A stretch of 39,575 nucleotides of DNA from Candidatus Staskawiczbacteria bacterium. Its GTDB lineage: Bacteria > Patescibacteriota > Minisyncoccia > Minisyncoccales > Staskawiczbacteraceae. A program made the position numbers and the translations under genes. The stretch lies in contig CALRFZ010000002.1 of NCBI GenBank assembly GCA_943357015.1, positions 1 to 39,575 of the forward strand, written 5' to 3'. Shown here piece after piece: positions 1,955 to 38,302 of this stretch (the first letter of the stretch is position 1; every line of letters starts with the position of its first letter). A model generated the notes under the pieces. The model saw only the letters and a list, made by a program, of their open reading frames with translations. It was not told the origin of the DNA and searched no databases.

Positions 1955-2079
1955 ACTTAGAATCTAGAATCTTGTATCTTGAAGCTAGAATGAAATATAA
2001 AATAGAGAATGTGATAAAATTATCAATTCATTTTTATATTCATGCTACCAGATACTAAATTCAAAATTCATTTTTTAAA

Positions 2080-2310
2080 ATGGTATCCATTCAACAAATT
2101 TTATTTTTTACGCAAATTGGAGTGTCAGTAACCTTAATTATTTTAATTGCTATCCAACAGCGTGGCACGGCGCTTGGGTCTGGCTTTGGAGGCGGGGGCG
2201 GAGGCGAATTTTACTCCCAAAGGCGTGGTATACAAAAAAAAATCTACTATGCTACAATTGTCATAGCTGGACTCTTTATTGCTTTAGGTATTGCTAATCT
2301 CCTAGTATAA
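2080..2310 (+). CDS. secG: Preprotein translocase subunit SecG
   Basis: 76 aa with two TM helices separated by the Gly-rich loop GSGFGGGGGGEFYSQRRG, the typical SecG architecture. Confidence 0.75.
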   Translation: MVSIQQILFFTQIGVSVTLIILIAIQQRGTALGSGFGGGGGGEFYSQRRGIQKKIYYATIVIAGLFIALGIANLLV

Positions 2311-2312
2311 AA

Positions 2313-2404
2313 TAGTGGCTAGTTGGTAGTGAGTAGTTGGTAGATTTTTCTTGAATTAAAATAGTTTATTCAATTCTACTCACTACAAACTACTCACTAC
2401 AAAC
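2313..2404. repeat. Family B palindromic heptamer element, copy B1 (fills the secG-SBP spacer)
   Basis: Arms TAGTTGG-TAGTGAG-TAGTTGG and CTACTCA-CTACAAA-CTACTCA-CTACAAA around a 38-nt non-palindromic core. Confidence 0.85.
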
Positions 2405-2408
2405 TTTA

Positions 2409-4412: not shown

Positions 4413-4542
4413 TTTACAGAAATTCCTAATTACCAATACCCAATTTCCAATCAAATCTTAATTACCAAATTTCTAAAAAGTTTCAAGTCATTATTTTTAG
4501 AAGTTGATTGATTATTGAGCCTTGAGTATTGGGATTTAAAAT

Positions 4543-5133
4543 ATGTCTATTGATTTATCAAAACTTAACCCTGATACAAGATACTTAAATGATATGCGTA
4601 GCGTTTTACGCGACCAAGAATGGGCAAAATCTGCGTCAAATATGGCATTATATTTTATGTACCGAGGCATAGAAGAATTAAACCAAATACGCTATGATAT
4701 TACAGTGGTTCCCGCTAATATGCTTGGCCAAGAATATGTCAAAACTAAGGGACATTACCACATAGGCAAATACGGCGAAGTTTATACAGTATTAGAGGGG
4801 CAAGCAATCTACTTAATGCAAAAAAAATTTAACGATGACAATATAGCCGATGTTTATGCTGTGCAGGCAAAAAAAGGCGATGTAGTAGTTATTCCTTCAG
4901 ACTATGGACACATAACAATTAACCCATCAAAAGAAGAATTAAAAATGGCTAACTGGGTAGCGTCAGACTGCAAAAGCGATTACTCTCTTTTTGAAAAACT
5001 ACAAGGAGCCTGCTACCATTACACGCTAGAAGGCTGGCAAAAAAACGAAAATTATAAAAATGTCCCACCCCTAAGATTTGAAGAACCACTCAAAGAAGTG
5101 CCAAGCAATTTAGATTTTCTAAAGGTTAAATAG
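4543..5133 (+). CDS. Cupin-type glucose-6-phosphate isomerase (archaeal-type cPGI family)
   Basis: 196 aa with cupin metal motif TKGHYHIGKYGEVYTVLEGQAIYLMQ ... GDVVVIPSDYGHITINP. Confidence 0.65.
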   Translation: MSIDLSKLNPDTRYLNDMRSVLRDQEWAKSASNMALYFMYRGIEELNQIRYDITVVPANMLGQEYVKTKGHYHIGKYGEVYTVLEGQAIYLMQKKFNDDNIADVYAVQAKKGDVVVIPSDYGHITINPSKEELKMANWVASDCKSDYSLFEKLQGACYHYTLEGWQKNENYKNVPPLRFEEPLKEVPSNLDFLKVK

Positions 5134-5138: not shown

Positions 5139-5220
5139 GCCCGAGTGGCGAAATTGGCAACCGCACGCGCTTCAGGTGCGCGCGCCGAAAGGCTTGAGGG
5201 TTCGAGTCCCTCCTCGGGCA
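5139..5220 (+). tRNA. tRNA-Leu (anticodon CAG), type II with long variable arm, CCA not encoded
   Basis: Acceptor GCCCGAG/CTCGGGC with discriminator A. D-arm contains AATTGG. Anticodon stem CGCGC/GCGCG with loop TTCAGGT. T-arm GAGGG-TTCGAGT-CCCTC. Close resemblance to canonical bacterial tRNA-Leu(CAG). Confidence 0.85.
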
Positions 5221-5439
5221 CACAACTAAATTAACAAAAGCGATCTGTAGCAATTTTATAATTTTTAATTTTATAATTTTTAAATAATTTCTTAATTTCG
5301 TAATGTTTTAAACATTAAAAATTTAAGCTTTTATTTATAAAATTATAAAAATTTAAAAATTCACCATTATTCATTAAAATATATAAAAAAATTAACATTA
5401 ATCCCTACGCGACTCGCGTAGCGGGAAAAACAAAAAATT

Positions 5440-7350: not shown

Positions 7351-7353
7351 ATA

Positions 7354-7494
7354 AATTTGAAATTTGAAATTTACAATTTGAAATCAATTTACAATAATTA
7401 AATTTGAAACTGTAAACATTAGTATTATTTTTTCAAATTTTAATATTTAAATAATTCAAATTGATTTCAAATTTCAAATTGTAAATTTCAAATT
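7354..7494. repeat. Family A palindromic element, copy A1 (fills the rnj-trpS spacer)
   Basis: 29-nt termini AATTTGAAATTTGAAATTTACAATTTGAA and TTCAAATTTCAAATTGTAAATTTCAAATT. The right end abuts the trpS ATG. Confidence 0.85.
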
Positions 7495-7495
7495 T

Positions 7496-8473
7496 ATGAG
7501 AATCGTATCTGGAATACAGCCAACTTCACAGCTTCATATCGGCAACTATTTGGGAGCCATAAAACAGTGGATACCACTGCAAGAAAATAACGAATGCGTT
7601 TTTTTCATTGCTGACTTGCACGCCATTACAACTCCCTACGATCCAAAAAACCTGCAAAACGCCATCAAAGAAACCGTAATTGCCTATATTTCAGCTGGTC
7701 TAAACCCAGAAAAGGCAATTATTTTTGTCCAATCGCAAATTAAAGAACATACAGAACTTGGCTGGCTCTTAAATACCATCTGTCCCATTGGCGAATTGGA
7801 ACGAATGACCCAATACAAAGATAAATCTAAAAAGTTTAAAGCCAATATCAACGCGGGGCTTTTAGATTATCCGGTCCTGCAAACCGCTGATGTACTTTTA
7901 TACAAAGGCCAAGCCGTACCAGTTGGTAAAGATCAAGAACAACACATTGAATTAATGCGAACTTTATCACGCAAATTCAATCAAAAATTTGGACAGACAT
8001 TTAGTGAACCCGCTTCAATGATTTTAAAAGAAGGGTCAAAAATTATGAGTCTGACCGACCCTAAAAAGAAAATGTCAAAATCCGATGACCCAAAAAGTTG
8101 CATTTTTTTATTTGATGAGCCAGAGGTCATTACCAAAAAAATCTTGTCGGCGCAAACCGATTCAGGTAAGGATGTAATTTACAATGTCACTAAAAAACCG
8201 GGAATTTCAAATCTTTTAACTATTTACAGTCTTTTAACTGGCAAAACCACTCAGCAACTGGAAGATGAATTTAGAGACAAAGGTTATGGCGACTTTAAAA
8301 AATCACTGGCTTTAGTGGTGGTAAATTACCTAGAACCATTCAGGCGTAAACAAAAAGAACTAGCCACAAGAGAAGTTTACATTCAAGAAATCTTAAAACA
8401 GGGCCATTCCCGCGCTCTAACAATTGCTCAAGAAACCATCAAAGAAGTAAAAGAAAAAATGGGATTGGTTTAG
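7496..8473 (+). CDS. trpS: Tryptophanyl-tRNA synthetase
   Basis: SGIQPTSQLHIGNYLGAI (HIGH motif) and KMSKS. The length of 325 aa is typical of bacterial TrpRS. Confidence 0.9.
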   Translation: MRIVSGIQPTSQLHIGNYLGAIKQWIPLQENNECVFFIADLHAITTPYDPKNLQNAIKETVIAYISAGLNPEKAIIFVQSQIKEHTELGWLLNTICPIGELERMTQYKDKSKKFKANINAGLLDYPVLQTADVLLYKGQAVPVGKDQEQHIELMRTLSRKFNQKFGQTFSEPASMILKEGSKIMSLTDPKKKMSKSDDPKSCIFLFDEPEVITKKILSAQTDSGKDVIYNVTKKPGISNLLTIYSLLTGKTTQQLEDEFRDKGYGDFKKSLALVVVNYLEPFRRKQKELATREVYIQEILKQGHSRALTIAQETIKEVKEKMGLV

Positions 8474-8477
8474 ATTT

Positions 8478-8511
8478 TAGTGGGTAGTTGGTAGTGAGTA
8501 GTTGGTAGATT
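8478..8511. repeat. Family B, half copy B2 (left arm only) abutting the trpS terminator
   Basis: 33/34 nt identical to 2313-2346. Confidence 0.85.
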
Positions 8512-8546
8512 AAAAAACAGCCTATTTATTAAAATGGCTGTTTTTT
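8512..8546. terminator. Bidirectional rho-independent terminator between convergent trpS and PMM/PGM
   Basis: AAAAAACAGCC-tatttattaaaat-GGCTGTTTTTT. Confidence 0.7.
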
Positions 8547-8557
8547 AGTCATACCAA

Positions 8558-9880: not shown

Positions 9881-9919
9881 AATTAATCATTATACTATAT
9901 GTATTATAAAGAAAAAGCC

Positions 9920-9947
9920 TTGATTTTTAAAATATATTTGCTATAAT
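9920..9947 (+). promoter_or_regulatory. Candidate rpsF operon promoter
   Basis: TTGATT - 16 nt - TGcTATAAT. The leader of about 85 nt ends in the hairpin TAGAATAT...ATATTCTA (10004-10033). Confidence 0.5.
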
Positions 9948-10037
9948 ATCAATATATAAATTACTTTGCTTATTTGTGCTCTATTTAATAACATAGAATA
10001 TTAAAATATATTTTCATATTCTACATCATCCTTTAAT

Positions 10038-10490
10038 ATGAAACCTTACGAATTAACTTATATTATATCTTCACATATTGTATCTGAACAAGTGGAAAAC
10101 CTTAAAAAGGGGGTGGAAGATTTTGTGCAAAAAAATGGTGGCGTGATTGTAAAATCCGAAAAATCTATTGCTCAAAGCTTGGCTTATCCAATCAAAAAAC
10201 ACAGCTCTGGTTTTTTTATGACATTGGAATTTAATGCAGAAGAAAAAGACATTAAGGCCTTAAAAGCGGAGTTAGAAAAAACACCTGATATTTTGCGTCA
10301 TTTTATTGTTGTTAAAATGCCCGCCAAAATTATGAAGGCACGCCGAACCAGAAAACCTGCCGTAGATGAAACTAAGGTTAAATCCAAAACTGAAAACACA
10401 GAAGTATTTAAGGAAAAGGCCATAAAAGATGAAAAACCCGTTGCAGACGAAGATATTGATAAAAAGTTAGACGAGATTCTTAGCGAATAG
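10038..10490 (+). CDS. rpsF: 30S ribosomal protein S6 with Lys/Glu-rich C-terminal tail
   Basis: MKPYELTYII start and position in the conserved rpsF-ssb-rpsR arrangement. Confidence 0.85.
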   Translation: MKPYELTYIISSHIVSEQVENLKKGVEDFVQKNGGVIVKSEKSIAQSLAYPIKKHSSGFFMTLEFNAEEKDIKALKAELEKTPDILRHFIVVKMPAKIMKARRTRKPAVDETKVKSKTENTEVFKEKAIKDEKPVADEDIDKKLDEILSE

Positions 10491-10580
10491 TTTGTAGAAT
10501 TGTAGTGAGTAGTTTGTAGAATTGAATAAAATATTTTAATTCAAGAAAAAACTACCAACTACAAACTACTCACCACAAAC
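10491..10580. repeat. Family B, copy B3 (fills the rpsF-ssb spacer), inverted relative to B1
   Basis: Core TAGAATTGAATAAAATATTTTAATTCAAGAAAAAACTA matches the reverse complement of the B1 core at 36/38 positions. Confidence 0.85.
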
Positions 10581-10587
10581 TCGTAAA

Positions 10588-11133
10588 ATGAATTTAAACA
10601 AAGCGTTCATTCTTGGCAATGTCACGCGCGACCCAGAAATGCGGTCTTTGCCATCTGGCCTTCAAGTAGCTTCATTTGGAATGGCTACTAACAGATTTTA
10701 CACTGACGCTCAGGGCATTAAAAAACAAGAAGCAGAGTTTCATAACATAGTTTGTTTTGGAAAAACCGCCGATATTGCTTCCAGATTTTTAGTCAAAGGC
10801 GCAATGGTCTTAATTGAAGGCCGAATAAAAACCTCAAGCTGGCAAGGTACTGATGGCATTAAAAAATATAAAACCGAAATTATTGCCGAAAGTTTGCAAT
10901 TGGGACCAAGACCAAGTGGAGTAAATGGATCATCATCAGGACAAAATGCAAGACCAGCCTACTCTGCGCCAACACAAACAAATCCCGCCTCCGCGCAAAA
11001 CTACGGCGTGGCGAAGGAAGAAATACCAATCATAGAAGAAAACACCCCAGTAAACTTTAATATTGAAGAACCAAAAAGTTTCACCAGCGAAGAAAAATCA
11101 GACGAAATAGACGTAAAAGATATACCATTCTAA
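10588..11133 (+). CDS. ssb: Single-stranded DNA-binding protein
   Basis: OB-fold N-terminus MNLNKAFILGNVTRDPEMR...FHNIVCFGK...LIEGRI, disordered linker and acidic tip ending DIPF. Confidence 0.9.
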   Translation: MNLNKAFILGNVTRDPEMRSLPSGLQVASFGMATNRFYTDAQGIKKQEAEFHNIVCFGKTADIASRFLVKGAMVLIEGRIKTSSWQGTDGIKKYKTEIIAESLQLGPRPSGVNGSSSGQNARPAYSAPTQTNPASAQNYGVAKEEIPIIEENTPVNFNIEEPKSFTSEEKSDEIDVKDIPF

Positions 11134-11243
11134 ATTTCCAATTACCAATATCCAATTCCCAATGAAAATCTAAATTTTTATAATTAGAAATTATGCATTT
11201 TATTGGAAATTAGAAATTAGAAATTAGAAATTAATTTTAAATT

Positions 11244-11441
11244 ATGTTCTGCCATTTTTGCCGAAAAAATATTGACGAAGTAGATTTTAAAGACATTGAA
11301 TTGTTGGCTAAGTTTGTTTCCGGTTTTTACAAAATCAAACCAAGAAAAAAAACTGGCCTTTGCAGTCACCATCAAAAGAAAGTCGCCACTGCTATTAAAC
11401 GAGCTAGACAAATGGCAATGATGCCTTATACTCCGCGCTAG
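11244..11441 (+). CDS. rpsR: 30S ribosomal protein S18
   Basis: CHFCRKNIDEVDFKDIELLAKFVS...KIKPRKKTGLCSHHQKKVATAIKRARQMAMMPY. Confidence 0.9.
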   Translation: MFCHFCRKNIDEVDFKDIELLAKFVSGFYKIKPRKKTGLCSHHQKKVATAIKRARQMAMMPYTPR

Positions 11442-11459
11442 TTGGTAGTTTGTAGAACT

Positions 11460-11499
11460 AAAAAAACAGCCATAATCAAAAGATTGTGACTGTTTTTTT
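11460..11499 (+). terminator. Terminator after rpsR (copy 1 of a duplicated terminator)
   Basis: AAAAAACAGCCATAATC-aaaa-GATTGTGACTGTTTTTTT. Confidence 0.7.
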
Positions 11500-11505
11500 A
11501 TAAAT

Positions 11506-11533
11506 TTGACATGATTTTTATAAAGAGTAGAAT
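11506..11533 (+). promoter_or_regulatory. Promoter of the 85-aa ORF
   Basis: TTGACA - 16 nt - TAGAAT. Confidence 0.5.
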
Positions 11534-11567
11534 TATGAATAGACCTATCCCTAAATAATATAAAATT

Positions 11568-11825: not shown

Positions 11826-11853
11826 TAGTAAATATCTAATTAAATCTTGATAT

Positions 11854-11894
11854 AAAAAACAGCCATAATCAAAAAAGATTGCGGCTGTTTTAGT
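11854..11894 (+). terminator. Terminator after the 85-aa ORF (copy 2)
   Basis: AAAAAACAGCCATAATC-aaaaaa-GATTGCGGCTGTTTT. The first 21 nt are identical to copy 1. Confidence 0.65.
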
Positions 11895-13035: not shown

Positions 13036-13043
13036 AATTAGTT

Positions 13044-13182
13044 AATTTGAAATTTGAAATTTACAATTTGAATTCAATATTTCAATTATTTAATAATTTA
13101 ATTCGAAAACTCGTCGAGTTTTAGTATTTTCAAATTTGATATTTCAAATTGAATTCAAATTTCAAATTGTAAATTTCAAATT
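13044..13182. repeat. Family A, copy A2 (fills the ftsK-recA spacer)
   Basis: Both 29-nt termini are identical to A1. The centre is diverged and contains AAAACTCG-t-CGAGTTTT. Confidence 0.85.
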
Positions 13183-13187
13183 CACAG

Positions 13188-15413
13188 CTACACTTTTTTC
13201 CACTCATTATCTTCTGTTTTCTGCGGAGTGTCTTCTGACTCATCTAATCCGCCGGGCTCCAAACTTTCGGATTTTGGAATTATAGTAGTGTTATCTCCGT
13301 AAACTTCACGCGGTTTGGCGCCATCAGCACCACCAACAATACCCCTGTCTTCTAACATATCAATTAAACGCGCGGCGCGAGAATATCCAATTCTTAACCT
13401 TCGTTGCAAAAATGACGCTGAAGCTTTTTTGGTTTCTAAAACTATTCTTTTGACATCTTCAAATAATGGGTCGTCATCGCCAAAAAAAGTTTCTCCACCC
13501 TCGGTTTTTTCTTGCTGGGACTGATCAAGTTGGTTTTTTAAGCTTTCAATTAAATCTACCTGAGGTTCCTGCACTTTTTTACCCATTTCAGTCACCCAAT
13601 CAGTCACTCTTTTAACTTCATTTTCTGAAACGTAAGGCCCTTGAACTCGCGTAATCTTAGAGCTTTTTGACGACAAAAACAACATATCACCCATACCTAT
13701 TAATTTTTCGGCGCCCGAAGTATCAAGCACGGTGCGTGAATCTATTTGTGATGCCACTTGAAAACTAATTCTAGAACTAATATTGGCCTTAATTAATCCG
13801 GTAATAACTTCAACAGAAGGTCTTTGAGTTGCCAAAACTAAATGAATACCAGTGGCTCGCGCCATTTGAGCTAACCTGACAATACCAGCTTCTAATTCCT
13901 TGCCTTTAGCTGCCATTAAATCAGCTAATTCGTCAACAATTAACACAATATAAGGCATTTGTTTGCCTTGAGCCATAACAGTTTTATTGGCGTTATAACT
14001 TTTAATATTACGGGTTGGAATTTCAGAAAATACTTCAAATCGGCGTTCCATTTCTCGGGCCAACCATTGCAAAGCATTAATGGTTTTAGCGGCATCGTTA
14101 ATAACCGGACACAATAAATGCGGAATATCATTATAATTTTGAAATTCCACGCGCTTGGGGTCAACCATAATTAATCGTATTTGATCTGGCGTACTTTTAT
14201 ATAATAAACTTAAAATCAAAGAATTTAGAAAAATCGTTTTTCCTGTTCCAGTGGCACCCGCCACCAACATATGAGGCTGTTCTTCTAATGCGGTATAAGT
14301 TGGAGAGCCTGACACGTCTTTGCCAAGCGCCAACATTAAAGGTGACTCCGATGACTGATATTGTTGATCAGCCACCAAATTTCGCAATACCACTGTGGCG
14401 CGCACCTTGTTTGGTACTTCAATACCCACTAGTGATTTACCCGGAATTGGCGCTTCAATTCTAATTGGGTGAGCGGCTAAAGCCAAAGCCAAGTTATTTG
14501 ATAAAGTGGTGATTTTAGAAAGTTTAACTCCTTCAGCGGGCTTAAAAGCGTACTGGGTAACAGTCGGACCAACATTGACTTCGGTCATTTCCACGGGAAT
14601 ACCAAAATTTTCTAAGGTTTTTTTAATAATCAAAGAGTTTTCTTTGATGTTTCCTGAGGTTGGCGAAGTTTCATTTTTAGATAACAGGTCAATTGGTGGC
14701 AAAGAATATTTACCCTTAGACTGGGCCGACATTAAAGTCACTGCTTCTGGTTTTTGACTTTTAGCTTCTAGTGTTTTAGCCAGTTGCCATTTTCCATTTG
14801 CAATTTGCTTTTTTGGCAATTCGGTTTTTTCTGGTTCTATACCCTTAATGCGAAAATTCGGAGCATCGGAACTTTTCAGCGGATCTGGTTTTATTATTTC
14901 TTTTGGTTCTAACATTTGCATCCATACAGATTGCGTAAAGATAAACAAACCAATAATTATTGTAGTTGCAAAAACAATATTGGCCACTAAAATTCCAAAC
15001 GACCCAACCAATAATTTAGCTAATAAAAAACCTATCCAACCGCCATTCATATTGGCAAGGTCGCGCCCGCCCAACACCCCTGCAATACCAATTAAGGCAA
15101 TTATAATCGCCAAAATCAGGGCCAGATTACTGGTTTTTTTCTTAGTTTTTAAAAAAATTAACCCGCCAAGCAATAAAAATAATGGTAAAGCATAGGCAGA
15201 ATTTCCCACTAAAAACTGAGAAATTTTGGTAAACCACATACCTGCCAAACCAGCCTTATCTAAGAAACTTAAAATAATAATAATCGCAAACAAAAACATC
15301 ACTATTGCTTTAATTAAACGCTTAGTGTGTAAAGTTAAAAGATATTCTTTCTTTTTTTCTTTGCCGTTTTTAACTGGTTTTTCCAACTTTTCGTCTTTCT
15401 CTTTTTTAGCCAT
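13188..15413 (-). CDS. ftsK: DNA translocase FtsK/SpoIIIE
   Basis: N-terminal TM helices, motor domain with HMLVAGATGTGKT (Walker A) and IVLIVDELADLM, and C-terminal gamma winged helix ASASFLQRRLRIGYSRAARLIDMLEDRGIVG. Confidence 0.9.
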   Translation of the reverse strand: MAKKEKDEKLEKPVKNGKEKKKEYLLTLHTKRLIKAIVMFLFAIIIILSFLDKAGLAGMWFTKISQFLVGNSAYALPLFLLLGGLIFLKTKKKTSNLALILAIIIALIGIAGVLGGRDLANMNGGWIGFLLAKLLVGSFGILVANIVFATTIIIGLFIFTQSVWMQMLEPKEIIKPDPLKSSDAPNFRIKGIEPEKTELPKKQIANGKWQLAKTLEAKSQKPEAVTLMSAQSKGKYSLPPIDLLSKNETSPTSGNIKENSLIIKKTLENFGIPVEMTEVNVGPTVTQYAFKPAEGVKLSKITTLSNNLALALAAHPIRIEAPIPGKSLVGIEVPNKVRATVVLRNLVADQQYQSSESPLMLALGKDVSGSPTYTALEEQPHMLVAGATGTGKTIFLNSLILSLLYKSTPDQIRLIMVDPKRVEFQNYNDIPHLLCPVINDAAKTINALQWLAREMERRFEVFSEIPTRNIKSYNANKTVMAQGKQMPYIVLIVDELADLMAAKGKELEAGIVRLAQMARATGIHLVLATQRPSVEVITGLIKANISSRISFQVASQIDSRTVLDTSGAEKLIGMGDMLFLSSKSSKITRVQGPYVSENEVKRVTDWVTEMGKKVQEPQVDLIESLKNQLDQSQQEKTEGGETFFGDDDPLFEDVKRIVLETKKASASFLQRRLRIGYSRAARLIDMLEDRGIVGGADGAKPREVYGDNTTIIPKSESLEPGGLDESEDTPQKTEDNEWKKV

Positions 15414-15445
15414 TTTTATGCAATTTATATACCTAGTCTATAGCT

Positions 15446-15475
15446 ATTGTATCACCTCCCACAACTTTTTCGCAA
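15446..15475 (-). promoter_or_regulatory. Candidate ftsK promoter
   Basis: Minus strand reads TTGCGA - 18 nt - TACAAT, about 35 nt upstream of the ftsK ATG. Confidence 0.35.
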
Positions 15476-15494
15476 GTGTATAATTTTACAAATT

Positions 15495-15528
15495 AAAAAA
15501 ATCCCCACACAATCTTGCGTAGGGATTT
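15495..15528 (-). terminator. Terminator closing the GC-rich cassette, upstream of the ftsK promoter
   Basis: Minus strand reads AAATCCC-(16-nt loop)-GGGATTTTTTT. Confidence 0.5.
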
Positions 15529-15585
15529 AGTCGCCAGTAAAAAATAATGACTCCAAGTCTGACTCATAATCATCTTCATAATTTA

Positions 15586-15672
15586 TCATTTTTCTCTTGT
15601 TAATTCTACGATAATTAAAATCAGAGCGAGGCCAAATAATATACCCATGAAGATACCCAGCAAAATAACCAT
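15586..15672 (-). CDS. Candidate 28-aa single-TM peptide MVILLGIFMGILFGLALILIIVELTREK (not in the ORF track)
   Basis: ATG preceded by GGAGA with a 6-nt spacer. One hydrophobic helix plus a charged tail. Lies between the hairpin after the 187-aa ORF and the terminator at 15495-15528. It competes with an overlapping 89-aa frame. Confidence 0.3.
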   Translation of the reverse strand: MVILLGIFMGILFGLALILIIVELTREK

Positions 15673-15725
15673 AAAATTTCTCCAAAAAAAAGTACAACTC
15701 AACACAAATCAATTGTGCTATACAT

Positions 15726-15761
15726 AAACCCCACCGCTGTACGAAGACAGAAGTGGGGTTT
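15726..15761. other. Interrupted hairpin immediately 3' of the 187-aa ORF
   Basis: AAACCCCAC / GTGGGGTTT (9 bp) with inner CTGT/ACAG. Confidence 0.75.
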
Positions 15762-15835
15762 TGTGAACGAAACGGTTCAAAGGGCTTAGTTTCCAAGGGT
15801 CAAAGGAGATCCAAGGATTTGAGCAACAAGAACTT

Positions 15836-16399
15836 TTACTTGCCTGCGACGGCCGCGGGAAAGTTGGAGCCAAAGCCATAGCCGAGCCAGACGTAGCCCC
15901 AGCTCCAGGACTTACCATTGAAGTAGAGGTAACGGACGTACAGATTGCCGTCGAAGAGCCGATAAATCGTACCCCAGAAGAAGACGTACTTGCCCTTCCA
16001 CTCTCCCGGAATCAGTTCCGGGTGGGCAAGCAAGTAGTCAAGCAGGTTGGCGTTATACACCCATTGGGTTTCCAGCACCAAGCGAAGTTCGTTGCCCCCG
16101 ATGCACTCGCCGCCTTGCTGCCCTGCGGCAAGGTAGAGTTGAACCTTTTGGGGATCCCACTCCAGTTGTCCGCCTTTCTTGTGGCTCTCGACTTTCCAGT
16201 TGTTGGGGATGTACGGGGTGGCGTCCATGTCGATGATGTGTTTGACGATCGTGATCTGGGCCTGGCCGTTAATCAACCTTCGGAGATCCTTTAGCTGAGG
16301 GAAATTCCTCATCTTTGTGACCTCATCAGGGGTGAAACCCGCCAATTCCAGAGCGTCGCCGAGCTGATTCATTTGGCCGATCGAAAACATAGTAGACAT
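15836..16399 (-). CDS. Hypothetical 187-aa protein of foreign composition (no recognised domain)
   Basis: Open frame in a segment of about 55-65% G+C. AAGGAG sits 6 nt upstream of the ATG. Strong GC3 preference (ATC 7 vs ATT 3, TAC 8 vs TAT 3). The W/Y/G-rich C-terminus FFWGTIYRLFDGNLYVRYLYFNGKSWSWGYVWLGYGFGSNFP looks like real protein. The antisense 90-aa ORF looks like a shadow. Confidence 0.75.
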   Translation of the reverse strand: MSTMFSIGQMNQLGDALELAGFTPDEVTKMRNFPQLKDLRRLINGQAQITIVKHIIDMDATPYIPNNWKVESHKKGGQLEWDPQKVQLYLAAGQQGGECIGGNELRLVLETQWVYNANLLDYLLAHPELIPGEWKGKYVFFWGTIYRLFDGNLYVRYLYFNGKSWSWGYVWLGYGFGSNFPAAVAGK

Positions 16400-16465
16400 C
16401 GTCTACTCCTTAGCTGTGGACACATCCGCACTTGGACATCGTCCGAAACACAGACCACCGAAATG

Positions 16466-16518
16466 GCAGTCATAGCCCTAAAATATCAAATTCATTGATA
16501 GCTTGGGGCTATGACTGC
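16466..16518. other. Long interrupted hairpin in the 5' leader of the 187-aa ORF
   Basis: GCAGTCATAGCCC (16466-16478) pairs perfectly with GGGCTATGACTGC (16506-16518). Inner stem TATCAA/TTGATA has a 5-nt loop. On the + strand it is followed by TCTTTTT. Confidence 0.8.
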
Positions 16519-16568
16519 TCTTTTTGCAAGTAATGTTAGTTGTAAAAGTGCTATTCTTACTATGTAAA

Positions 16569-16596
16569 ATTATAGCATATTATAGTTATATGTCAA
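16569..16596 (-). promoter_or_regulatory. Near-consensus sigma70-type promoter facing the 187-aa ORF
   Basis: Minus strand reads TTGACA - 16 nt - TGcTATAAT (extended -10). Located between the rpoC terminator and the 5' hairpin. Confidence 0.6.
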
Positions 16597-16634
16597 TATT
16601 AGACTGTACATATAGACCCACAACTACCACAACC

Positions 16635-16658
16635 AAAAAACCGCTTTTGCGGTTTTTT
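16635..16658 (-). terminator. rpoC terminator (symmetrical)
   Basis: AAAAAACCGC-tttt-GCGGTTTTTT, 43 nt after the rpoC stop. Confidence 0.8.
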
Positions 16659-16700
16659 GGTTTGACTAGACCCTAGACCCTAAACACTAGACCCTAATTT

Positions 16701-23640: not shown

Positions 23641-23742
23641 GCGTGAGAATTTTGAATTACTAATCTTGAATTTTGAATAAAATCAGAATTTTAAATTTTA
23701 GAAACCCAGAATATTTCCAAATTATATGATTCAAAATTTATT

Positions 23743-23770
23743 CGAAATTCGAAATTCGAAATTCGAAATT
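23743..23770. repeat. Perfect tandem heptamer (CGAAATT)x4 upstream of rpoB
   Basis: Read directly from the sequence. Related CGAAATTCG words occur at 33532-33545, 33633-33646 and 38283-38297. Confidence 0.9.
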
Positions 23771-23778
23771 TTAGTTTT

Positions 23779-25107: not shown

Positions 25108-27135
<2,028 letters not shown>

Positions 27136-27161: not shown

Positions 27162-27692
27162 CTATGGATTAACTTGACTAGTTGAGCTTGCCTCGATTTG
27201 CCTTATAGTTTGGCGAAAAAACCCTTTTGAATTTATCGTAAACACCGAATAATTAGCATTAAAAGGATCTGGAGCTACCAAAGCGTACACCGTATAAGTT
27301 TTATCGGCCACAATAGCGTCATAAGTAATATAGCAATTTCTGCAAGTTGCAAGGTCGCAACCGTTAACTTCAATTGGAGTCGCAACGCAATTACTGCAAA
27401 AAGTGTCAGGACTAACACCAGCCTGATTGCAAGAATTGCAAATATCGCAAAAACCTCGACTGCCACCACTAGGAATTTTTTTTCGGTCCAAATATGAAGT
27501 TTTTTCAATCCCAGTATCGGCAGAATAAAATGCCGATGTTGAATTGCCAATAGCGCCAATTATTTTAATTTCATTAAATAGTATTGTTCCGATTGAAAGC
27601 ACAATTGCAATCATCACTGTCATAACCAAAAAAACAATAATCAAAGAAACCCCCTTCTGTGAATTTTTAATTTTACAATTTTTAATTTTCAA
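27162..27692 (-). CDS. Putative PilX-like / minor pilin with Cys-rich head
   Basis: N-terminal hydrophobic helix KGVSLIIVFLVMTVMIAIVLSIG. 8 Cys in about 45 aa (FCDICNSCN...FCSNC...GCDLATCRNC). Last gene of the pilin cluster. Confidence 0.5.
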   Translation of the reverse strand: MKIKNCKIKNSQKGVSLIIVFLVMTVMIAIVLSIGTILFNEIKIIGAIGNSTSAFYSADTGIEKTSYLDRKKIPSGGSRGFCDICNSCNQAGVSPDTFCSNCVATPIEVNGCDLATCRNCYITYDAIVADKTYTVYALVAPDPFNANYSVFTINSKGFFRQTIRQIEASSTSQVNP

Positions 27693-27758
27693 AATAATTT
27701 AAAAATTTTAAATTTTGGATTTTTTTGGAACTTGTAATTTTGAATTTGAGATTCTAAT

Positions 27759-28370
27759 CTATGGCAAATTCAAATTTCTCTGTGAGACTGTGGTTTGAAT
27801 AATTTTTTCCTGCTGACGACCTGTTAACTGAGTTTTAACATCTAACAAAACCGTTACCCTTGGTTGAATTAAATCACCACCTGTAGCAAATCCCAAAGTA
27901 CTATCGCCATTGATTATAAATTTACCATATTTAATTTCAAGTCTATCCGATAAAATATTTTTAGCCGTGCCATTACCTTTAATTTCCTTTAAAGCTGGCT
28001 TGGCTGGATCGGTAGTGCTATCTAAGAAAAATTCCTGACAAGCATTGCCATCTGTCTGATTAATAAATTTAACTCCGTGACAAATATTACCAGTGTCGCA
28101 GTGCGTTAAAAGATAAATATAACCTGCTTGGCCAAGGCAATTTCCACTCGCATCCTTAGTGGCCATACGAATTGCCTTAGACATATATTCTATCGCAAAA
28201 CTGGTTTGATTTAATAATTCTTGTTCAGCCAAAATTCGTCGCTCACTTGAAACCATAGAAATAAAAACATCTGCCACCACCCCAATAATAATTAAAAATA
28301 CAGCCAAAACCACCACCAGTTCAATAATAGTAAACCCTTTTTGATATTTTTTTTGTTTATCGTTTGTCAA
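27759..28370 (-). CDS. Prepilin-type minor pilin / pseudopilin
   Basis: Class III signal KGFTIIELVVVLAVFLIIIGV. A TTG start at 28370 is preferred (giving MTNDKQKKYQKG|FTIIE). The ORF-track start 28436 translates heptamer repeats. Confidence 0.6.
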   Translation of the reverse strand: MTNDKQKKYQKGFTIIELVVVLAVFLIIIGVVADVFISMVSSERRILAEQELLNQTSFAIEYMSKAIRMATKDASGNCLGQAGYIYLLTHCDTGNICHGVKFINQTDGNACQEFFLDSTTDPAKPALKEIKGNGTAKNILSDRLEIKYGKFIINGDSTLGFATGGDLIQPRVTVLLDVKTQLTGRQQEKIIQTTVSQRNLNLP

Positions 28371-28431
28371 TTTAGTAAAAGTTACTAGTGAATAGTTGGT
28401 AGTGAGTAGTTTTGCCAGTTGCCAGTTCGCC

Positions 28432-28466
28432 GTCAAATGTCAATTGTTAAATGTTAATTGTCAATT
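28432..28466. repeat. 35-nt heptamer block (GTCAAAT GTCAATT GTTAAAT GTTAATT GTCAATT), left partner of a 1.15-kb-spaced inverted repeat
   Basis: Matches the reverse complement of 29589-29623 at 32/35 positions. Confidence 0.85.
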
Positions 28467-28473
28467 ACCACCA

Positions 28474-29049: not shown

Positions 29050-29625
29050 TTATTTTATTTCCACCAGTCCCGATGTATTAACCGATACTGTTCTTTCTTG
29101 GGCCAGATCATCCTCAATCGCAAATATAATATTTACATTGCTTTGATTTGGTTGTAATTGGGTAATTGTAGTTGTGGGTCCCGGTGGAGTAAAATTTATA
29201 CTCACATTATTGCCAACCACATTTTGCACTTCCTTAATGATAATTCCCGGTTCAATAACACTAAGATCAATAACAGACACTAAATAATCTCCTAAATCAT
29301 ACTGAAAATTACCGGGATATTTATCGGCGTAAATAATATATTTTTTATTGTCTGACATATCCACATAAACTCCGTATCCGCTAATGGGTCGCTCAACACC
29401 ATTAGCATCTTTATACTTCATTGAAGTATTTTGGATTTTTCGGGTATTTTGCAAAAAACCGTGCACCGTCCGCGACAAAGATAAATTTAATCTAATTTGA
29501 GGGAAATTAGATATTAAAACTAATAAAAAAGAGGTCATTAAAGCTAAAACCACCATTATTTCGATAATAGTAAAACCCCTTTGGCGACAATTGACAATTG
29601 ACATTTGACAATTAACATTTGACAT
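29050..29625 (-). CDS. Prepilin-type minor pilin
   Basis: ...CRQRG|FTIIEIMVVLALM. An alternative ATG lies at 29604. The first 12 codons are made of the GTCAAAT/GTCAATT heptamer repeat. Confidence 0.65.
   Translation of the reverse strand: MSNVNCQMSIVNCRQRGFTIIEIMVVLALMTSFLLVLISNFPQIRLNLSLSRTVHGFLQNTRKIQNTSMKYKDANGVERPISGYGVYVDMSDNKKYIIYADKYPGNFQYDLGDYLVSVIDLSVIEPGIIIKEVQNVVGNNVSINFTPPGPTTTITQLQPNQSNVNIIFAIEDDLAQERTVSVNTSGLVEIK
29589..29623. repeat. Right partner of the inverted repeat
   Basis: See 28432-28466. It overlaps the first codons of the 191-aa pilin ORF. Confidence 0.85.
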
Positions 29626-29638: not shown

Positions 29639-30442
29639 TTAAAAAATAAGAAAACTCGAATACCAATTAATTATTTGGTTGCCAAACAACATTGCTATCA
29701 ATGTTCCGACAATTAAAAACGGCGCAAACGGAACCTCGCTTTTTAGACCTTTTTTATCAAAAAATATCAATATCAAACCTATTATAGCACCTAAAAAGAA
29801 AGCTAAAAATAGCCCCACTAAAATATTGGGACATCCCAAAGTTAATCCCAGCAAAATTGCCAGCTTTACATCACCAAAACCCATCCACTGACCACGGGAT
29901 ATTAAATAAATAAACAAGAAAAAACCAGAGGCGATAACAACGGCTAGAAAGTAATTCCCAATTCCCAATTCCCAATTCCCAATCAAAATACTGTTAACAA
30001 TGCGATATAAAAATGTAATAAAAATAGCTGGGAATAACACTTTATCTGGAATTAGGTAAAATTTAAGGTCGTAGACAAAAATAACTATTAAAGAACTAGC
30101 AATATAGAATAAAAAAGCAAGATTTATTAAGTCAATCGCATTGAAAATTGGTAATTGGTAATTGGTAATTAGTAAAAATACTATCGCCACTGATATTTCT
30201 ACCAACGGGTACTGTATGGAAATTTTCTTACAACAGTATTGGCATCGCCCTTTTAAAAATAAAAAACTTAAGACTGGAATTAAATCCAACCAAACCAAAT
30301 TATGTTTACACTCTGGGCAATATGATCTGCCACCTAAAAAACTTTGATTTTGTTCTAGTCTATATATAGCGCAGTTTAAAAAACTGCCAATACAAAGGCC
30401 AAATAAAAATACTAAAAAATTAAGTAAAATCACATCAATCAT
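29639..30442 (-). CDS. pilD: Prepilin peptidase (A24 family, PilD/ComC-like)
   Basis: GLCIGSFLNCAIYRL, CPECKHNL...GRCQYCCKKI and GFGDVKL. ATG 30442 is preferred over the GTG at 30484, which overlaps a palindrome. Confidence 0.85.
   Translation of the reverse strand: MIDVILLNFLVFLFGLCIGSFLNCAIYRLEQNQSFLGGRSYCPECKHNLVWLDLIPVLSFLFLKGRCQYCCKKISIQYPLVEISVAIVFLLITNYQLPIFNAIDLINLAFLFYIASSLIVIFVYDLKFYLIPDKVLFPAIFITFLYRIVNSILIGNWELGIGNYFLAVVIASGFFLFIYLISRGQWMGFGDVKLAILLGLTLGCPNILVGLFLAFFLGAIIGLILIFFDKKGLKSEVPFAPFLIVGTLIAMLFGNQIINWYSSFLIF
29953..29980. repeat. (AATTCCC)x4 tandem heptamer inside the pilD CDS
   Basis: Read directly. It encodes LIGNWELGIGNY on the minus strand. Confidence 0.9.
30147..30167. 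repeat. (ATTGGTA)x3 tandem heptamer inside the pilD CDS, inverted relative to the first array
   Basis: Read directly. It encodes ITNYQLPI. Confidence 0.9.
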
Positions 30443-31085: not shown

Positions 31086-31159
31086 CTCTATGCTAGCTGA
31101 TAAATAACAACTAACTACTAACTTCTGACTACGAATAAAACTACTCACTACAAACTAAC

Positions 31160-32368: not shown

Positions 32369-32391
32369 AATTTCTTGCGAGAAATTTCCTG

Positions 32392-32449
32392 CGAATTACG
32401 AATCTTGGCGAATTACGAATACTTTGCTTATGGATTCGTAATTCGTAAG
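32392..32449. repeat. CGAATTACG-family palindrome filling the pilT-pilC spacer
   Basis: Two tandem left units plus the inverted partner GATTCGTAATTCGTAAG. Confidence 0.8.
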
Positions 32450-32454
32450 AATAT

Positions 32455-33519: not shown

Positions 33520-33585
33520 AATGGTTAAATACGAAATTCGAATATATACATAGCTAAAACTATTTATATATTGCGTCACTCGGTC

Positions 33586-33614
33586 AGCATTTGAAAATTA
33601 TATTTTCAAATGCT
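33586..33614. promoter_or_regulatory. Perfect 13-bp inverted repeat with 3-nt spacer between pilB and pilT
   Basis: AGCATTTGAAAAT-tat-ATTTTCAAATGCT. No U-run follows on the coding strand. Confidence 0.6.
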
Positions 33615-33679
33615 TCCCTTCGCTAGCAGTATCGAAATTCGAAACAATAAACTAGCTTTAAACAATAAATAAAATATTT

Positions 33680-35864: not shown

Positions 35865-35913
35865 AGTGATTAAGTTTCTAATTTCTAATTCCTAATTTTT
35901 AATTTCTAGTAGG

Positions 35914-36468: not shown

Positions 36469-36483
36469 ACAAACCAGCTTGAT

Positions 36484-37017
36484 TTAATAGCTAAAAATCT
36501 TGGGATTTAAGGTCAAACTTAAAGTAAATTTAATTTTCCCCTGTTCGGTTATTTGTGAATTTAACACAGAAATTGCGATTACATAATCTTTACTTTCTTC
36601 CAAAACTTTAATCTGATTACTCAAAGTTGCCATATTATCCGATTCTCCACCCAAATTAATATTATTTTTTGCCTCTAAAATACTAAGATTGGAAAACCAA
36701 ACGCTAGGCAAGGTCTTTTTTTCAATAAAGTTAAATATATTTAAAGATATTTTATGATTATTAATAATTTGACTTACGTCATCAATCTTTTTTTTATAAG
36801 CTAAAACTTTAGCCTCAACTTTTTTTTGTTCTGGGGTGTTATACAATAGCGCTTTAATATCCAAATCATTAATTTTTTTAGTATCTATATTAACTTTAAG
36901 CGCCAATACTATATAAATTAAAAACACAATCGCCAACAAAAAAATTGCAAGGTATAGCATTACGCTTGGCCAACGAGACTGATTATCTTTTAATTGATAA
37001 AATGCTCCAGAATCCAT
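36484..37017 (-). CDS. pilN: PilN-like pilus assembly protein
   Basis: Bitopic TM VMLYLAIFLLAIVFLIYIVLAL. C-terminal INLGGESDNMATLSNQIKVLEES resembles the PilN core. The call is mostly position-based. Confidence 0.45.
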   Translation of the reverse strand: MDSGAFYQLKDNQSRWPSVMLYLAIFLLAIVFLIYIVLALKVNIDTKKINDLDIKALLYNTPEQKKVEAKVLAYKKKIDDVSQIINNHKISLNIFNFIEKKTLPSVWFSNLSILEAKNNINLGGESDNMATLSNQIKVLEESKDYVIAISVLNSQITEQGKIKFTLSLTLNPKIFSY

Positions 37018-37120
37018 ATCAAGAAAATTTTGAATTTTTAATTTCTAATTTCTAATTTCTAAAATTTAGGAATTATATATTTTAAATTTGGACTTTAGTA
37101 TAAATTATACCTTAATAAAT

Positions 37121-38188
37121 TCACTCATCCAATCCTCCCAGCGCCACGCCAATTGTGGCAGAAAAACTTGGACTTAAATCCTTAAGGGTTTCCTCAAGTA
37201 TGGGCGGATACAAAAAATCGGAAAAACAATTAGGCGCCAAAACGGTCTTTTTTAAACTCTCGGAAAAATATTCTTTTAAACCCGGCAAATTAGCCGTGCC
37301 ACCAGTTAAATAAATTTCTTCAATTGGTTTTTTTTCTGCCTGCAAAAATTCCTCAACAATATTTTTTATATCTGCCAGCAGAGGATCAATTAAAAGGTAT
37401 AAAGCTTTAGTGACATCCTGACGCTTAAATAACAATCCCTCTTTATTAATTATGTCTTGAGCTTGCGCCAAATCTACCTCTAAAACCTGCGCAACAGATT
37501 TTAATAATTGCCCGCTATTAAAATTAAAACTATAACTTTTTCTCAAAAAACCTCTTTCCACAATATTAATTGTAGAACTTTGCGCGCCAATATCAATTAT
37601 GCAAATTGACTTTTTATTGTTTTTTACCAAGGCCCGCGCTACGCCCAAAGCCTCAGCTTCTAGCGCGTATAATTTAAGTCCAGCCAAACGAGCTATTTCT
37701 TTGTAAGATTGAATAACCTGATTAGGAACTGCCACCAAAAAAACCTTAATTGGTTTAGATTTATCTCTTTGCAAACTTGGCTCAACCAACCAATCTAATG
37801 TAACTTCTGAAATTGGCAAGGTAATATACTGGGAAGCGTTAAAGTAAATTGCATTTGGAATTTCCTTTTCTGTCATTTGAGGAATTTCAAACGAGGTGCA
37901 AAAAGTAGAAAAATCAGGGATAGAAAAAATAGCTGATTTGGTTTTAATATTTGCCTCATCCAAAACCCCGCGTATAGTTTTGGCAATAAAATCATTGGAA
38001 AGCAAAGACCGGCCTTTTTGATTGGCATCCATTAATTCTTTATAAAAAGATGCGGATTTAATTTCTCCGTAATTTTCCACGGTTTTTCCTTGACCAAAAC
38101 GAGAAATTTCCACTATTTTAATAGAAGAAGTGCCAATATCAATCCCCACCATTTTTTTCGGAAAAAACATTCTAAAAGGATTAAACAT
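37121..38188 (-). CDS. pilM: Type IV pilus assembly protein PilM (actin-like ATPase fold)
   Basis: MVGIDIGTSSIKIVEI, ICIIDIGAQSSTINI and IYLTGGTANLPGL. Confidence 0.85.
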   Translation of the reverse strand: MFNPFRMFFPKKMVGIDIGTSSIKIVEISRFGQGKTVENYGEIKSASFYKELMDANQKGRSLLSNDFIAKTIRGVLDEANIKTKSAIFSIPDFSTFCTSFEIPQMTEKEIPNAIYFNASQYITLPISEVTLDWLVEPSLQRDKSKPIKVFLVAVPNQVIQSYKEIARLAGLKLYALEAEALGVARALVKNNKKSICIIDIGAQSSTINIVERGFLRKSYSFNFNSGQLLKSVAQVLEVDLAQAQDIINKEGLLFKRQDVTKALYLLIDPLLADIKNIVEEFLQAEKKPIEEIYLTGGTANLPGLKEYFSESLKKTVLAPNCFSDFLYPPILEETLKDLSPSFSATIGVALGGLDE

Positions 38189-38196
38189 AAGCTTAA

Positions 38197-38302
38197 TTTT
38201 GAATTTCCAATTTTGAATTTCGAATAAATTTATAATGCGTCAATTTTATAAACAAAATCTGAAATTCGATTTTTATTCAAAATTCGAAATTCGAAATTAA
38301 AA
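38197..38302. repeat. Heptamer palindrome in the divergent pilM / comF control region
   Basis: The arms 38197-38228 and 38272-38302 are complementary at about 27/31 positions. Confidence 0.7.

Follow-up and report, generated by a model that had tools for sequence, protein, structure and literature searches.

We analyzed a 39.6-kb stretch of DNA (35% GC; hereafter the window) from Candidatus Staskawiczbacteria, an ultra-small groundwater member of Parcubacteria in the candidate phyla radiation (CPR), in which many spacers carry tandem arrays of degenerate 7-nt units, often as facing pairs that fold as hairpins and that are probably small dispersed palindromic repeats. The window opens with uvrC, a holin-like membrane protein gene, secG, genes for a peptide-binding solute-binding protein (SBP) and a cupin-type glucose-6-phosphate isomerase (GPI), tRNA-Leu, RNase J and trpS; it continues with phosphomannomutase, rpsF-ssb-rpsR, recA and ftsK, followed by rpoB-rpoC, ftsW and ligA; and it ends with a type IV pilus cluster (4-5 pilins, pilD, pilC, pilT, pilB, pilO/N-like genes and pilM) and comF. 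The best RpoC matches were metagenome-assembled genomes (MAGs) of Candidatus Staskawiczbacteria, the top one showing 89% protein and ~78% DNA identity. Our comparison set consisted of 110 related loci (about 1.75-1.8 Mb; loci carry L numbers such as L005), and L113, L116, L121 and L124 are strain variants of the window. Searches of genome and metagenome contig collections yielded other species only (≤89% RpoC and ≤84% RNase J identity), and contigs of the organism itself were obtained by exact-protein look-up from three public assemblies (ENA ERZ27280317, ENA ERZ27280321 and Logan ERR5863124). Since identical spacer sequences were present in independent assemblies, an assembly artefact is ruled out.

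Tandem Repeats Finder (TRF) detected ~35 period-7 arrays in the window, compared with 3-7 arrays for each neighbouring period (6, 8, 9, 10 and 11). All arrays quoted in a first-pass annotation of this DNA were recovered (1958, 2320, 7353, 11133, 11202, 16666, 20286, 23740, 28432, 35875 and 37033). Lag-7 identity of the ~4.5 kb of intergenic DNA was 0.404, versus 0.304+/-0.007 in dinucleotide shuffles (z=14.6), with echoes at lag 14 (z=6.6) and lag 21 (z=3.5), whereas autocorrelation of coding DNA showed period 3 only. With unit sizes in the range of 5-11 nt, greater length or frequency than expected from composition, and period 7 dominant, these are heptanucleotide long simple-sequence repeats (SSRs) in the sense of Mrazek 2007. 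Arrays of period 7, 14 or 21 covered 802 of 4418 intergenic bases (18%) but 0.9% of coding bases; when the loops of hairpin elements were added, intergenic coverage rose to approximately one third (about 32%, our own sum of the listed parts). The first-pass annotation had described the intergenic DNA as built almost entirely from heptamers; the strong periodicity stood, and the extent did not, as several spacers (9881-10037, 11442-11567, 15414-15835 and 33520-33679) were free of heptamers. In addition, an AT-rich palindrome downstream of tRNA-Leu (5252-5361; fold z -6.1) is composed of 8-, 15- and 27-nt units (AATTTTAT...) and not of heptamers.

The arrays could be sorted into word families that recur across the window:

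Family A: TAGTTGG/TAGTGAG/TAGTTTG
Family B: AAATTTG/AAATTTA/CAATTTG
Family C: AATTTCC/AATTACC/AATTCCC
Family D: AATTTCG/AATTTTG/AATTTCT
Family E: GTCAATT/GTCAAAT/GTTAAAT
Family F: ATTCGTA/ATTCGCC

An arm is built of ~4-5 degenerate units, chiefly of the form AATTNNN or TAGNNNN, together with a short tail specific to its family, and units have a GC content of 22%. Two inverted arms (25-66 nt, 73-92% complementary) around a spacer of 15-70 nt make an element of 70-145 nt, and arms are also found singly. The hairpin elements of the window are as follows:

2313-2405: family A hairpin element that fills the secG-SBP spacer; arms TAGTTGG/TAGTGAG ... CTACTCA/CTACAAA, TRF arrays 2320-2343 and 2376-2405; fold z -3.9/-4.8.
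4419-4543: degenerate hairpin of family C within the SBP-GPI spacer, 81% identical to 11133-11169; z -2.4, covariance model score 37.6 bits; below the TRF threshold.
7351-7497: family B hairpin element that takes up the RNase J-trpS spacer, starting at stop+2 and ending one base ahead of ATG; 66-nt arms, 80% complementary; RNA z -6.6, DNA z -5.8.
10481-10581: family A hairpin element in the rpsF-ssb spacer, in the orientation opposite to 2313-2405; its first unit is the rpsF stop TAG; z -6.5/-8.4.
11131-11238: imperfect hairpin in the ssb-rpsR spacer, in which an AGAAATT array lies opposite the family C arm AATTTCC/AATTACC; z -3.9, covariance model score 43 bits.
13041-13185: family B hairpin element in the ftsK-recA spacer; arms as in 7351-7497, inner part different; z -6.7.
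20287-20389: heptamer hairpin of TTCAAAA/GTTAAAA type in the rpoB-rpoC spacer; z -4.5.
23646-23776: family D element situated in the 5′ leader of rpoB, downstream of the promoter-like 23959-23932; AATTTTG/AATTTCG arms, CGAAATT x4.4; covariance model score 117 bits.
32376-32448: family F hairpin (ATTCGTA/ATTCGCC) in the pilC-pilT spacer; z -4.2/-5.6; identical in strain variant L121.
38189-38311: family D element in the divergent pilM/comF region; z -6.7/-6.2; covariance model score 99.7 bits.

Copies of one family share more than their repeat words. Over 68 nt, loop included, positions 2326-2393 matched the reverse complement of 10502-10569 at 88% identity, and 28 of the 29 loop bases at 2348-2376 are the same on the other strand of the 10481-10581 element; such a shared non-repetitive loop indicates one element present in both orientations. 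The latter copy was also identical in strain variant L113. In family B, an arm of 7351-7497 was 97% identical to 13044-13078, and a 29-nt irregular arm sequence, AATTTGAAATTTGAAATTTACAATTTGAA, occurs exactly at 7354, at 13044 and in L003, and with 2-4 mismatches in L005, L007, L008, L033 and L085. Both family B elements place an irregular AC variant unit one unit further inward on one arm than on the other, and the arm of 13041-13185 is, in our reading of the alignment, about 47/50 identical to an arm upstream of rpoC in L005 and L008. Family C arms have the common tail CCAAT(G/C)AAAAT.

Spacers with facing arrays (2300-2408, 7351-7495, 10491-10587, 11131-11243, 13036-13187, 20277-20400, 32369-32454 and 38189-38342) folded much better than shuffled sequences (z about -3.9 to -6.7), whichever strand was taken and whether RNA or DNA parameters were applied. 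The heptamer hairpins are AT-rich (18-21% GC). Single-array spacers folded no better than shuffles: 27693-27758, 28437-28473, 35865-35913 and 37018-37120, which lie between pilM and N, between O and the 144-aa gene, and among the pilins, contain one direct array each (z ~0). The excess folding predicted earlier was therefore observed where arrays face each other, but such hairpins occupy about 10 of the 24 spacers of ≥35 nt and not most spacers. Likewise, hairpins inside operons were found between rpsF and ssb, ssb and rpsR, rpoB and rpoC, and pilC and pilT, and were lacking in the pilM-N, O-144aa and pilin spacers.

Occurrence of the period-7 excess was patchy over the 110 related loci. It was strong in ~12 species, including L005, L008, L018, L006, L033, L055, L056 and L067 and some only 62% identical in RpoC, and was absent in many relatives, including L002, the closest by rpoC. 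The same word families recurred in genomes of 33-45% GC, and 222 of 302 arrays in related loci were intergenic. Spacer lengths were bimodal: 2-60 nt in most relatives or 105-125 nt with a hairpin for rpoB-rpoC, 1-26 or 70-146 nt for RNase J-trpS, and 2-31 or 70-115 nt for rpsF-ssb. The long forms carry heptamer hairpins, with the word family usually differing between species, and the near-nil spacers of many relatives imply that the elements are discrete additions. In these loci, the heptamer-rich fraction was 32% among convergent spacers, 20% among co-directional ones and 7.7% among divergent ones. This location bias is like that of REP-type elements (see below) and fits either tolerance, promoter regions being constrained, or a 3′-end role.

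Family D illustrates dispersal between species. The element at L085 11775-11900, in the RNase J-trpS spacer, aligned over its full length (~130 nt) with 23646-23776 and 38189-38311; mean column identity over these three loci in two species was 82%, and a non-repeat inner segment, GAATAAAATCAGAATTTT, was common to them. With a covariance model of the family, about 17 additional hairpins of like architecture were detected in 10 other genomes and the window. Over 30 model matches, stem pairing was 85%, compared with 65% in shuffled sequences and ≤55% when partners were slid, and both sides changed at 41 of 42 pairs. These pairing statistics fit any palindromic origin and are, alone, no demonstration of RNA selection.

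Sequence from variant strains (L113, L116, L121 and L124; about 12.7 kb at 99.5-99.96% identity) contained 22 single-nucleotide polymorphisms (SNPs) and one indel. This sole indel is an exact heptamer, 37039-37045, deleted in L116 (ERZ27280321, 99.5% identical), with a SNP nearby at 37052, and it is the kind of unit-number polymorphism that the first-pass annotation proposed to look for. Paralogous family A copies also differ by one 7-nt unit, as do orthologous elements of L008 and L082 in our reading of the spacers. Whole-unit slippage occurs, and the loci are not hypermutable. In addition, short-read, unitig-style contigs of Logan ERR5863124 (L001 and L114) stop at 7496, 10531 and 13071, within arms or at their margins, which is what one would expect if these sequences have further copies in the genome; the elements are likely among the main reasons why such MAGs are fragmented.

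Arms and arrays were also detected inside or overlapping coding sequences:

842-873, + strand: AAAGTCA x4.6 array in the variable linker of uvrC.
26604-26638: family D-type array GAATTTT x5 inside ligA, coding for 11 residues in an indel-rich loop.
27662-27716: AATTTTT/AATTTTA array spanning the start of a PilX-like gene.
28386-28473: a family A arm together with one of family E (GTCAAAT/GTCAATT/GTTAAAT), located where the pilin gene 27759-28436 has its 5′ end; 86% complementary to 29582-29623.
29582-29625, - strand: family E arm coding for the pilin leader peptide MSNVNCQMSIVNCRQRGFTIIE.
29953-29989: perfect family C arm, AATTCCC x4.4, inside pilD; it adds 12 aa in frame compared with the L051 ortholog and is 86% identical to 11133-11169 with the non-repeat tail.
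30139-30175: reverse-complement family C arm, AATTGGT x4.3, inside pilD; it adds 9 aa in frame, compared with the same ortholog, to the linker that joins the A24_N and Peptidase_A24 domains.

The two pilD arms are mutually complementary and lie 150 nt apart around native coding sequence. At the ligA site, a 7-aa-periodic segment was present in L005 (KFEIRNYKFEI) and L013, and other relatives had a gap. Array-encoded pilin leader peptides were found in the window (MSNVNCQMSIVNC...) and in L005, L007 and L008; the L005 ortholog of the 29582-29625 pilin carries the same AAATGTC array in its leader.

Arrays without a facing partner in the same spacer were mostly located next to stop or start codons:

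1958-1991, + strand: TAGAATC x4.9 directly past a stop codon.
8478-8508, + strand: family A arm that keeps the phase of the trpS stop (a TAG at each 7-nt step from 8471), then a conventional bidirectional terminator at 8510-8550.
11439-11466, + strand: family A arm whose first unit is the rpsR stop, then a terminator hairpin.
16666-16696, - strand: array TAGGGTC/TAGTGTT (sense) directly past the rpoC stop, then a GC-rich terminator.
31105-31157, - strand: family A-type array, sense TAGTTTG/TAGTGAG, past the pilC stop; identical in L121 and L122.
35875-35908, - strand: array, sense TAGAAAT/TAAAAAT, after the pilO stop; no fold.
37026-37062, - strand: TAATTTC x3 upstream of the pilN-like start; strain-polymorphic.

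TAGTGAG-type arrays directly follow the rpoC stop in L006 and L033 as well. Genes whose starts adjoin arrays in the window include trpS, recA, ssb, rpsR and pilN-like, and in related loci arrays after stop codons were as common as those before starts. Post-gene arrays, among them those at 8471-8508, 10488-10524, 11439-11466 and 16666-16703, tend to have a stop codon in each sense unit, often in the register of the gene; TAG every 7 nt places stops in all three frames inside 21 nt. Over all loci, stop-adjacent arrays had stop-containing units in the sense strand only in 37 cases and in the antisense strand only in 11, and start-adjacent arrays were unbiased (17 vs 14). A solo family F arm at 1469-1502 is the 91% complementary partner of the pilC-pilT hairpin arm. 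The Pfam domain of the holin-like ORF (1463-1561 region) starts at residue 45, so that this open reading frame (ORF) probably begins at an internal Met (MKSLL..., about 1562), in which case the arm would be intergenic, just past the uvrC stop.

Complementary arms of the same family also bracket whole genes, 1.1-1.2 kb apart:

28432-28473/29582-29623, around two pilin genes.
35872-35901/37060-37089, around pilO and the pilN-like gene.
37033-37058/38280-38305, around pilM.

This arrangement may be due to chance, given few families, or these inverted repeats could support inversion or long-range pairing.

Conventional expression signals lie outside the arrays. Sigma-70-type promoters were found at 16596-16569 (12/12 match), 23959-23932, 11506-11533 and 9920-9947, and GC-stem/T-tract terminators were read from the sequence at 8510-8550, 11460-11500, 11850-11890 and ~16640-16665; a terminator scan gave one call, 15528-15499, and did not call the heptamer hairpins. 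A role of these hairpins as intrinsic terminators was rejected, given their long, AT-rich stems and the separate canonical terminators, and arrays as promoters were rejected because the best sigma-70-like sites are outside them. Selection on transcripts should enrich sense-strand G:U among stem mismatches. No such excess was detected in 58 heptamer-rich co-directional spacers (9 sense vs 11 antisense), and G:U versus A:C over all co-directional spacers (72 vs 62) showed no bias. Folds were about equally strong on both strands, and the antisense strand folded better at 10491-10587 and 32369-32454. In relatives, fold z was at a median of -2.9 for heptamer-rich and -2.4 for heptamer-poor spacers (p=0.07). 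The first-pass annotation had raised RNA elements that substitute for conventional signals; the near-consensus promoters and terminators outside arrays and the G:U counts speak against this idea, and occurrence in a divergent promoter region and inside ORFs also disfavours it. Two other candidates were rejected: DNA-uptake sequences, as no single word is over-represented and arrays are almost absent from coding DNA, and tandem interspaced guide RNA (TIGR) or CRISPR-like arrays, as there were no arrays of ~36-nt period and no spacers of that kind.

Shine-Dalgarno (SD) motifs were nearly absent at the 33 starts of the window, with only hyp187 (AAGGAG) convincing and a loose test passed by 4/33. 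The sequence just ahead of starts is A/T-rich, in many cases ...AAATT ATG, and in relatives a conserved ACGCC/AAACCC precedes the rpoC start in place of GGAGG. Among stop codons of the 33 genes, TGA was used once (pilM) and TAG 15 times, a high TAG share for 35% GC.

Several known systems resemble the elements in part. REPINs are REP (repetitive extragenic palindromic) doublets, which form hairpins and are mobilised by RAYT transposases (Bertels & Rainey 2011, PMC3116915). As in REPINs, inverted units surround a variable spacer to give a ~100-nt hairpin, several families are present per genome, singlets occur besides inverted doublets, and the sequences are extragenic, few in promoter regions, biased to gene 3′ ends and kept within a clade. 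However, the arms are AT-rich tandem heptamer arrays instead of GC-rich imperfect palindromes of 20-25 nt, they also enter coding sequence, and no RAYT was found in the sequence covered. Nor is the unit itself a GTAG-headed imperfect palindrome: single arms had z ~0 (35865-35913 and 28437-28473), and GTAG was present in family A only.

Miniature inverted-repeat transposable elements (MITEs), Correia/NEMIS elements and Rickettsia palindromic elements (RPEs) are non-autonomous sequences 100-150 bp long that end in inverted repeats, lie scattered over spacers and are co-transcribed as hairpins; in-frame insertion into protein-coding genes is a further trait of RPEs. The elements described here are similarly short (70-145 nt) and non-coding with terminal inverted repeats, and dispersed copies are alike beyond these repeats (28/29 in the family A loop; three loci in family D). 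No target-site duplication or parent insertion sequence (IS) was identified in the sequence covered, and tandem-heptamer termini are not known as a feature of the MITE, Correia/NEMIS or RPE families.

The arms, in turn, resemble heptanucleotide SSRs. In many bacteria, no class of long simple repeats is more abundant than heptamers, for which slippage has been suggested as the cause (Mrazek 2007, as cited in PMC4679880 and PMC4692102); Xanthomonas GGGAATC and Nostoc GGGGAYT repeats are intergenic, of ~4 units and sometimes inverted (PMC4692102). Here too, degenerate 7-nt tandems, mostly of ~4 copies, are overwhelmingly intergenic and length-variable between relatives, with some arrays in inverted, stem-loop-capable pairs. 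The short tandemly repeated repetitive (STRR) sequences known from heterocystous cyanobacteria have the units CCCCAGT (STRR1), TTGGTCA (STRR2) and CAACAGT (STRR3). Comparison with STRR elements, made in the first-pass annotation, is apt as an analogy, as both are dispersed intergenic heptanucleotide tandems; the host, a CPR bacterium with a small, dense genome, is not a heterocystous cyanobacterium, and no tandem STRR1-3, GGGAATC or GGGGAYT was found in the window or 1.8 Mb of related loci. In addition, many word families occur here instead of one, and they form discrete dispersed palindromic elements with shared loops. TAACTGA direct repeats occur in marine Beggiatoaceae, Cyanobacteria and Bacteroidetes (MacGregor 2015, PMC4679880), and binding of a translational regulator was proposed for Beggiatoaceae (PMC4679880). 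Similarities include 2-6-unit heptamer arrays a few nt upstream of starts in SD-poor hosts, location in ribosomal-protein and RNA polymerase operons, and a patchy phylogenetic distribution suggesting transfer. In contrast to that single fixed heptamer, with one inverted case in 170 sets, we observed many words, often in inverted pairs and equally common after stops; TAACTGA itself occurs nine times singly and never in tandem. Full-text searches of the literature on heptamers, MITEs and palindromic repeats in CPR, Patescibacteria or Parcubacteria found no description of such elements. The kind is known elsewhere (STRR, heptamer simple repeats and REPINs), and the palindromic heptamer-armed form appears, as far as these searches reach, to be new for CPR bacteria.

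We interpret the structures as REPIN/MITE-like dispersed palindromic repeats with heptanucleotide-microsatellite arms, at a probability of about 0.6. The loci show discrete insertion, dispersal of families in both orientations inside one species and across species, slippage by whole units, and purifying filtering that depends on location, with survival confined to low-harm places: spacers (mainly 3′ of genes), leader peptides and in-frame protein loops. Among the origins listed in the first-pass annotation, tiny mobile elements are the best supported, by dispersed families, shared loops and insertion-like spacers. Slippage-driven growth, another of them, was observed as a process acting on arrays, but the shared non-repetitive loops make slippage alone insufficient. 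In the mechanism we propose, a few families of small non-coding palindromic repeats would colonise spacers, spreading by copy-or-cut-and-paste in the REPIN/MITE manner via a protein presumably encoded outside the window; paired arms would fold as a hairpin in single-stranded DNA or transcript, and heptamer arrays would then breathe through replication slippage. Hairpins in operon transcripts would be a by-product, with a possible secondary influence on how the mRNA is processed or on translational coupling. The lack of G:U versus A:C strand asymmetry is as expected for a symmetric element at the DNA level. Other observations weigh against this interpretation. The window contains no transposase or RAYT-like gene, a crude tblastn of 1.8 Mb of loci with an IS200 TnpA sequence, a weak test, gave nothing at E<0.4, and the termini of copies of families A, B and D showed no recognisable target-site duplication. 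Full copies number only 2-3 for each family in the sequence covered, and the one IS-like end observed (window 1-74; L117 1-260) has termini unrelated to the elements and no heptamers. Transposition of whole elements does not predict the pilD arms, which surround native sequence and imply that arms can arrive singly. Slippage is not fast, as ~10 other arrays and hairpins were the same between strains that differ by SNPs. Finally, a family B arm upstream of rpoC was identical at 44/44 positions between L005 and L008, whose rpoC genes are 75% identical (53% at third codon positions); neutral decay of a selfish copy inherited at an orthologous site would not give this identity, for which constraint on the sequence, concerted evolution or a recent transfer would be the more fitting causes.

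Undescribed non-autonomous mobile DNA, with iterated 7-bp termini recognised by a protein, might spread among species of naturally competent CPR bacteria and be co-opted as intercistronic hairpins that bring stop and start codons together and thereby couple translation in SD-less operons; if true, this would explain why arms by essential genes such as rpoC are conserved beyond synonymous sites, and we consider it rather unlikely. The conserved arm upstream of rpoC, together with hairpins far stabler than shuffles, elements that reach from just past a stop to just before a start (7351-7495 and 13036-13187), an SD-like motif in only about 1-4/33 genes, enrichment 3′ of genes with depletion in divergent spacers, and the paired changes in the family D model, would suit RNA hairpins selected as RNase III sites, 3′-end stabilisers or terminators, or stop-start couplers in SD-less operons. 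We are doubtful of this account too, since strands fold about equally and lack a G:U excess, the elements occur in either orientation, in the divergent promoter region 38189-38311 and within ORFs, heptamer-rich spacers of relatives are barely more structured than others, conventional promoters and terminators exist, and many close relatives manage with 1-30-nt spacers at the same junctions; the pairing statistics cannot tell RNA selection from a palindromic origin. Iterated binding sites for a host S1, CspA or CsrA-type regulator or a nucleoid protein, with palindromy secondary, would agree with arrays that abut starts in an SD-poor genome, as described for TAACTGA repeats (PMC4679880), with conservation of the arm across species and with word families that recur over genomes of 33-45% GC. 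This is very unlikely: at least six unrelated word families in one genome and gene-start words that differ by species do not fit a single specificity, arrays are as frequent after stops as before starts, and no candidate protein was found. Equally improbable is a purely local origin, in which slippage grows each array, the facing arm arises by inverted duplication or template switching, and words are similar because they are AT-rich. The abundance of heptamers among long SSRs of many bacteria, for which slippage was proposed (Mrazek 2007, as cited in PMC4679880 and PMC4692102), unit-sized indels in the window's species, different words in orthologous spacers across species and the unit GC of only 22% are all compatible with it, but convergence cannot give shared irregular sequences such as the family A loop, the family D inner segment, the asymmetric AC variant of family B arms and the family C tail, and spacer lengths are bimodal and not continuous.

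Additional features were noted in or near the window. Positions 1-74 are the end of a repeated IS-like element, ~140 nt of which are identical in two contigs (L117 1-260 and L115 1-140). Its ORF, reading outward from the window, begins with MHHSSKLFPYQKREIFAKWKQGERVASLARNYRVSRPTIYKVL and is helix-turn-helix and transposase-like. A second, inverted copy lies ~300 nt past the 3′ end of the window, beyond two tRNA-like genes, so that a 39.9-kb segment is bracketed by inverted IS copies. The leader of a 187-aa gene of unknown function (16400-16700, - strand) has a perfect TTGACA-16-TGnTATAAT promoter (16596-16569) followed by ~160 nt with a strong GC-rich hairpin (16461-16523; z -9 for the whole spacer) and no Rfam match, and could be an uncharacterised leader or riboswitch-like element. 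Rfam searches of 15400-16720 at E≤1 gave chance-level matches, and Rfam 15 on the whole window at the gathering threshold matched tRNA-Leu (5139-5220) only. In many relatives, a membrane-anchored ORF of ~190 aa, ending in ...STFKF(T/A)x, is located between rpoB and rpoC (L008 9312-9893, L005 9349-9927, and upstream of rpoC in L004, L006, L009, L010, L017, L026 and L039); the window does not have it. In L008, it is flanked by the two arms of a family B element. This 193-aa ORF was rejected as a transposase, having only a weak PsbP_2 match.

CPR/Patescibacteria genomes are usually described as streamlined and repeat-poor. In contrast, approximately one third of the scarce non-coding DNA analyzed here consists of repeat elements, which reach essential operons (rpoB-rpoC and rpsF-ssb-rpsR), pilin leaders, and the coding sequence of pilD and ligA. 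They break short-read assemblies at predictable places, their unit-number variation provides strain markers, and through them SD-less polycistronic mRNAs acquire long hairpins, in organisms where little work has been done on gene expression. The elements look like small selfish palindromic repeats rather than a new type of genetic signal. With them, the unexplained bacterial excess of 7-nt repeats extends to a distant lineage and to a palindromic dispersed form, and they may help tell polymerase slippage from protein recognition as its cause.

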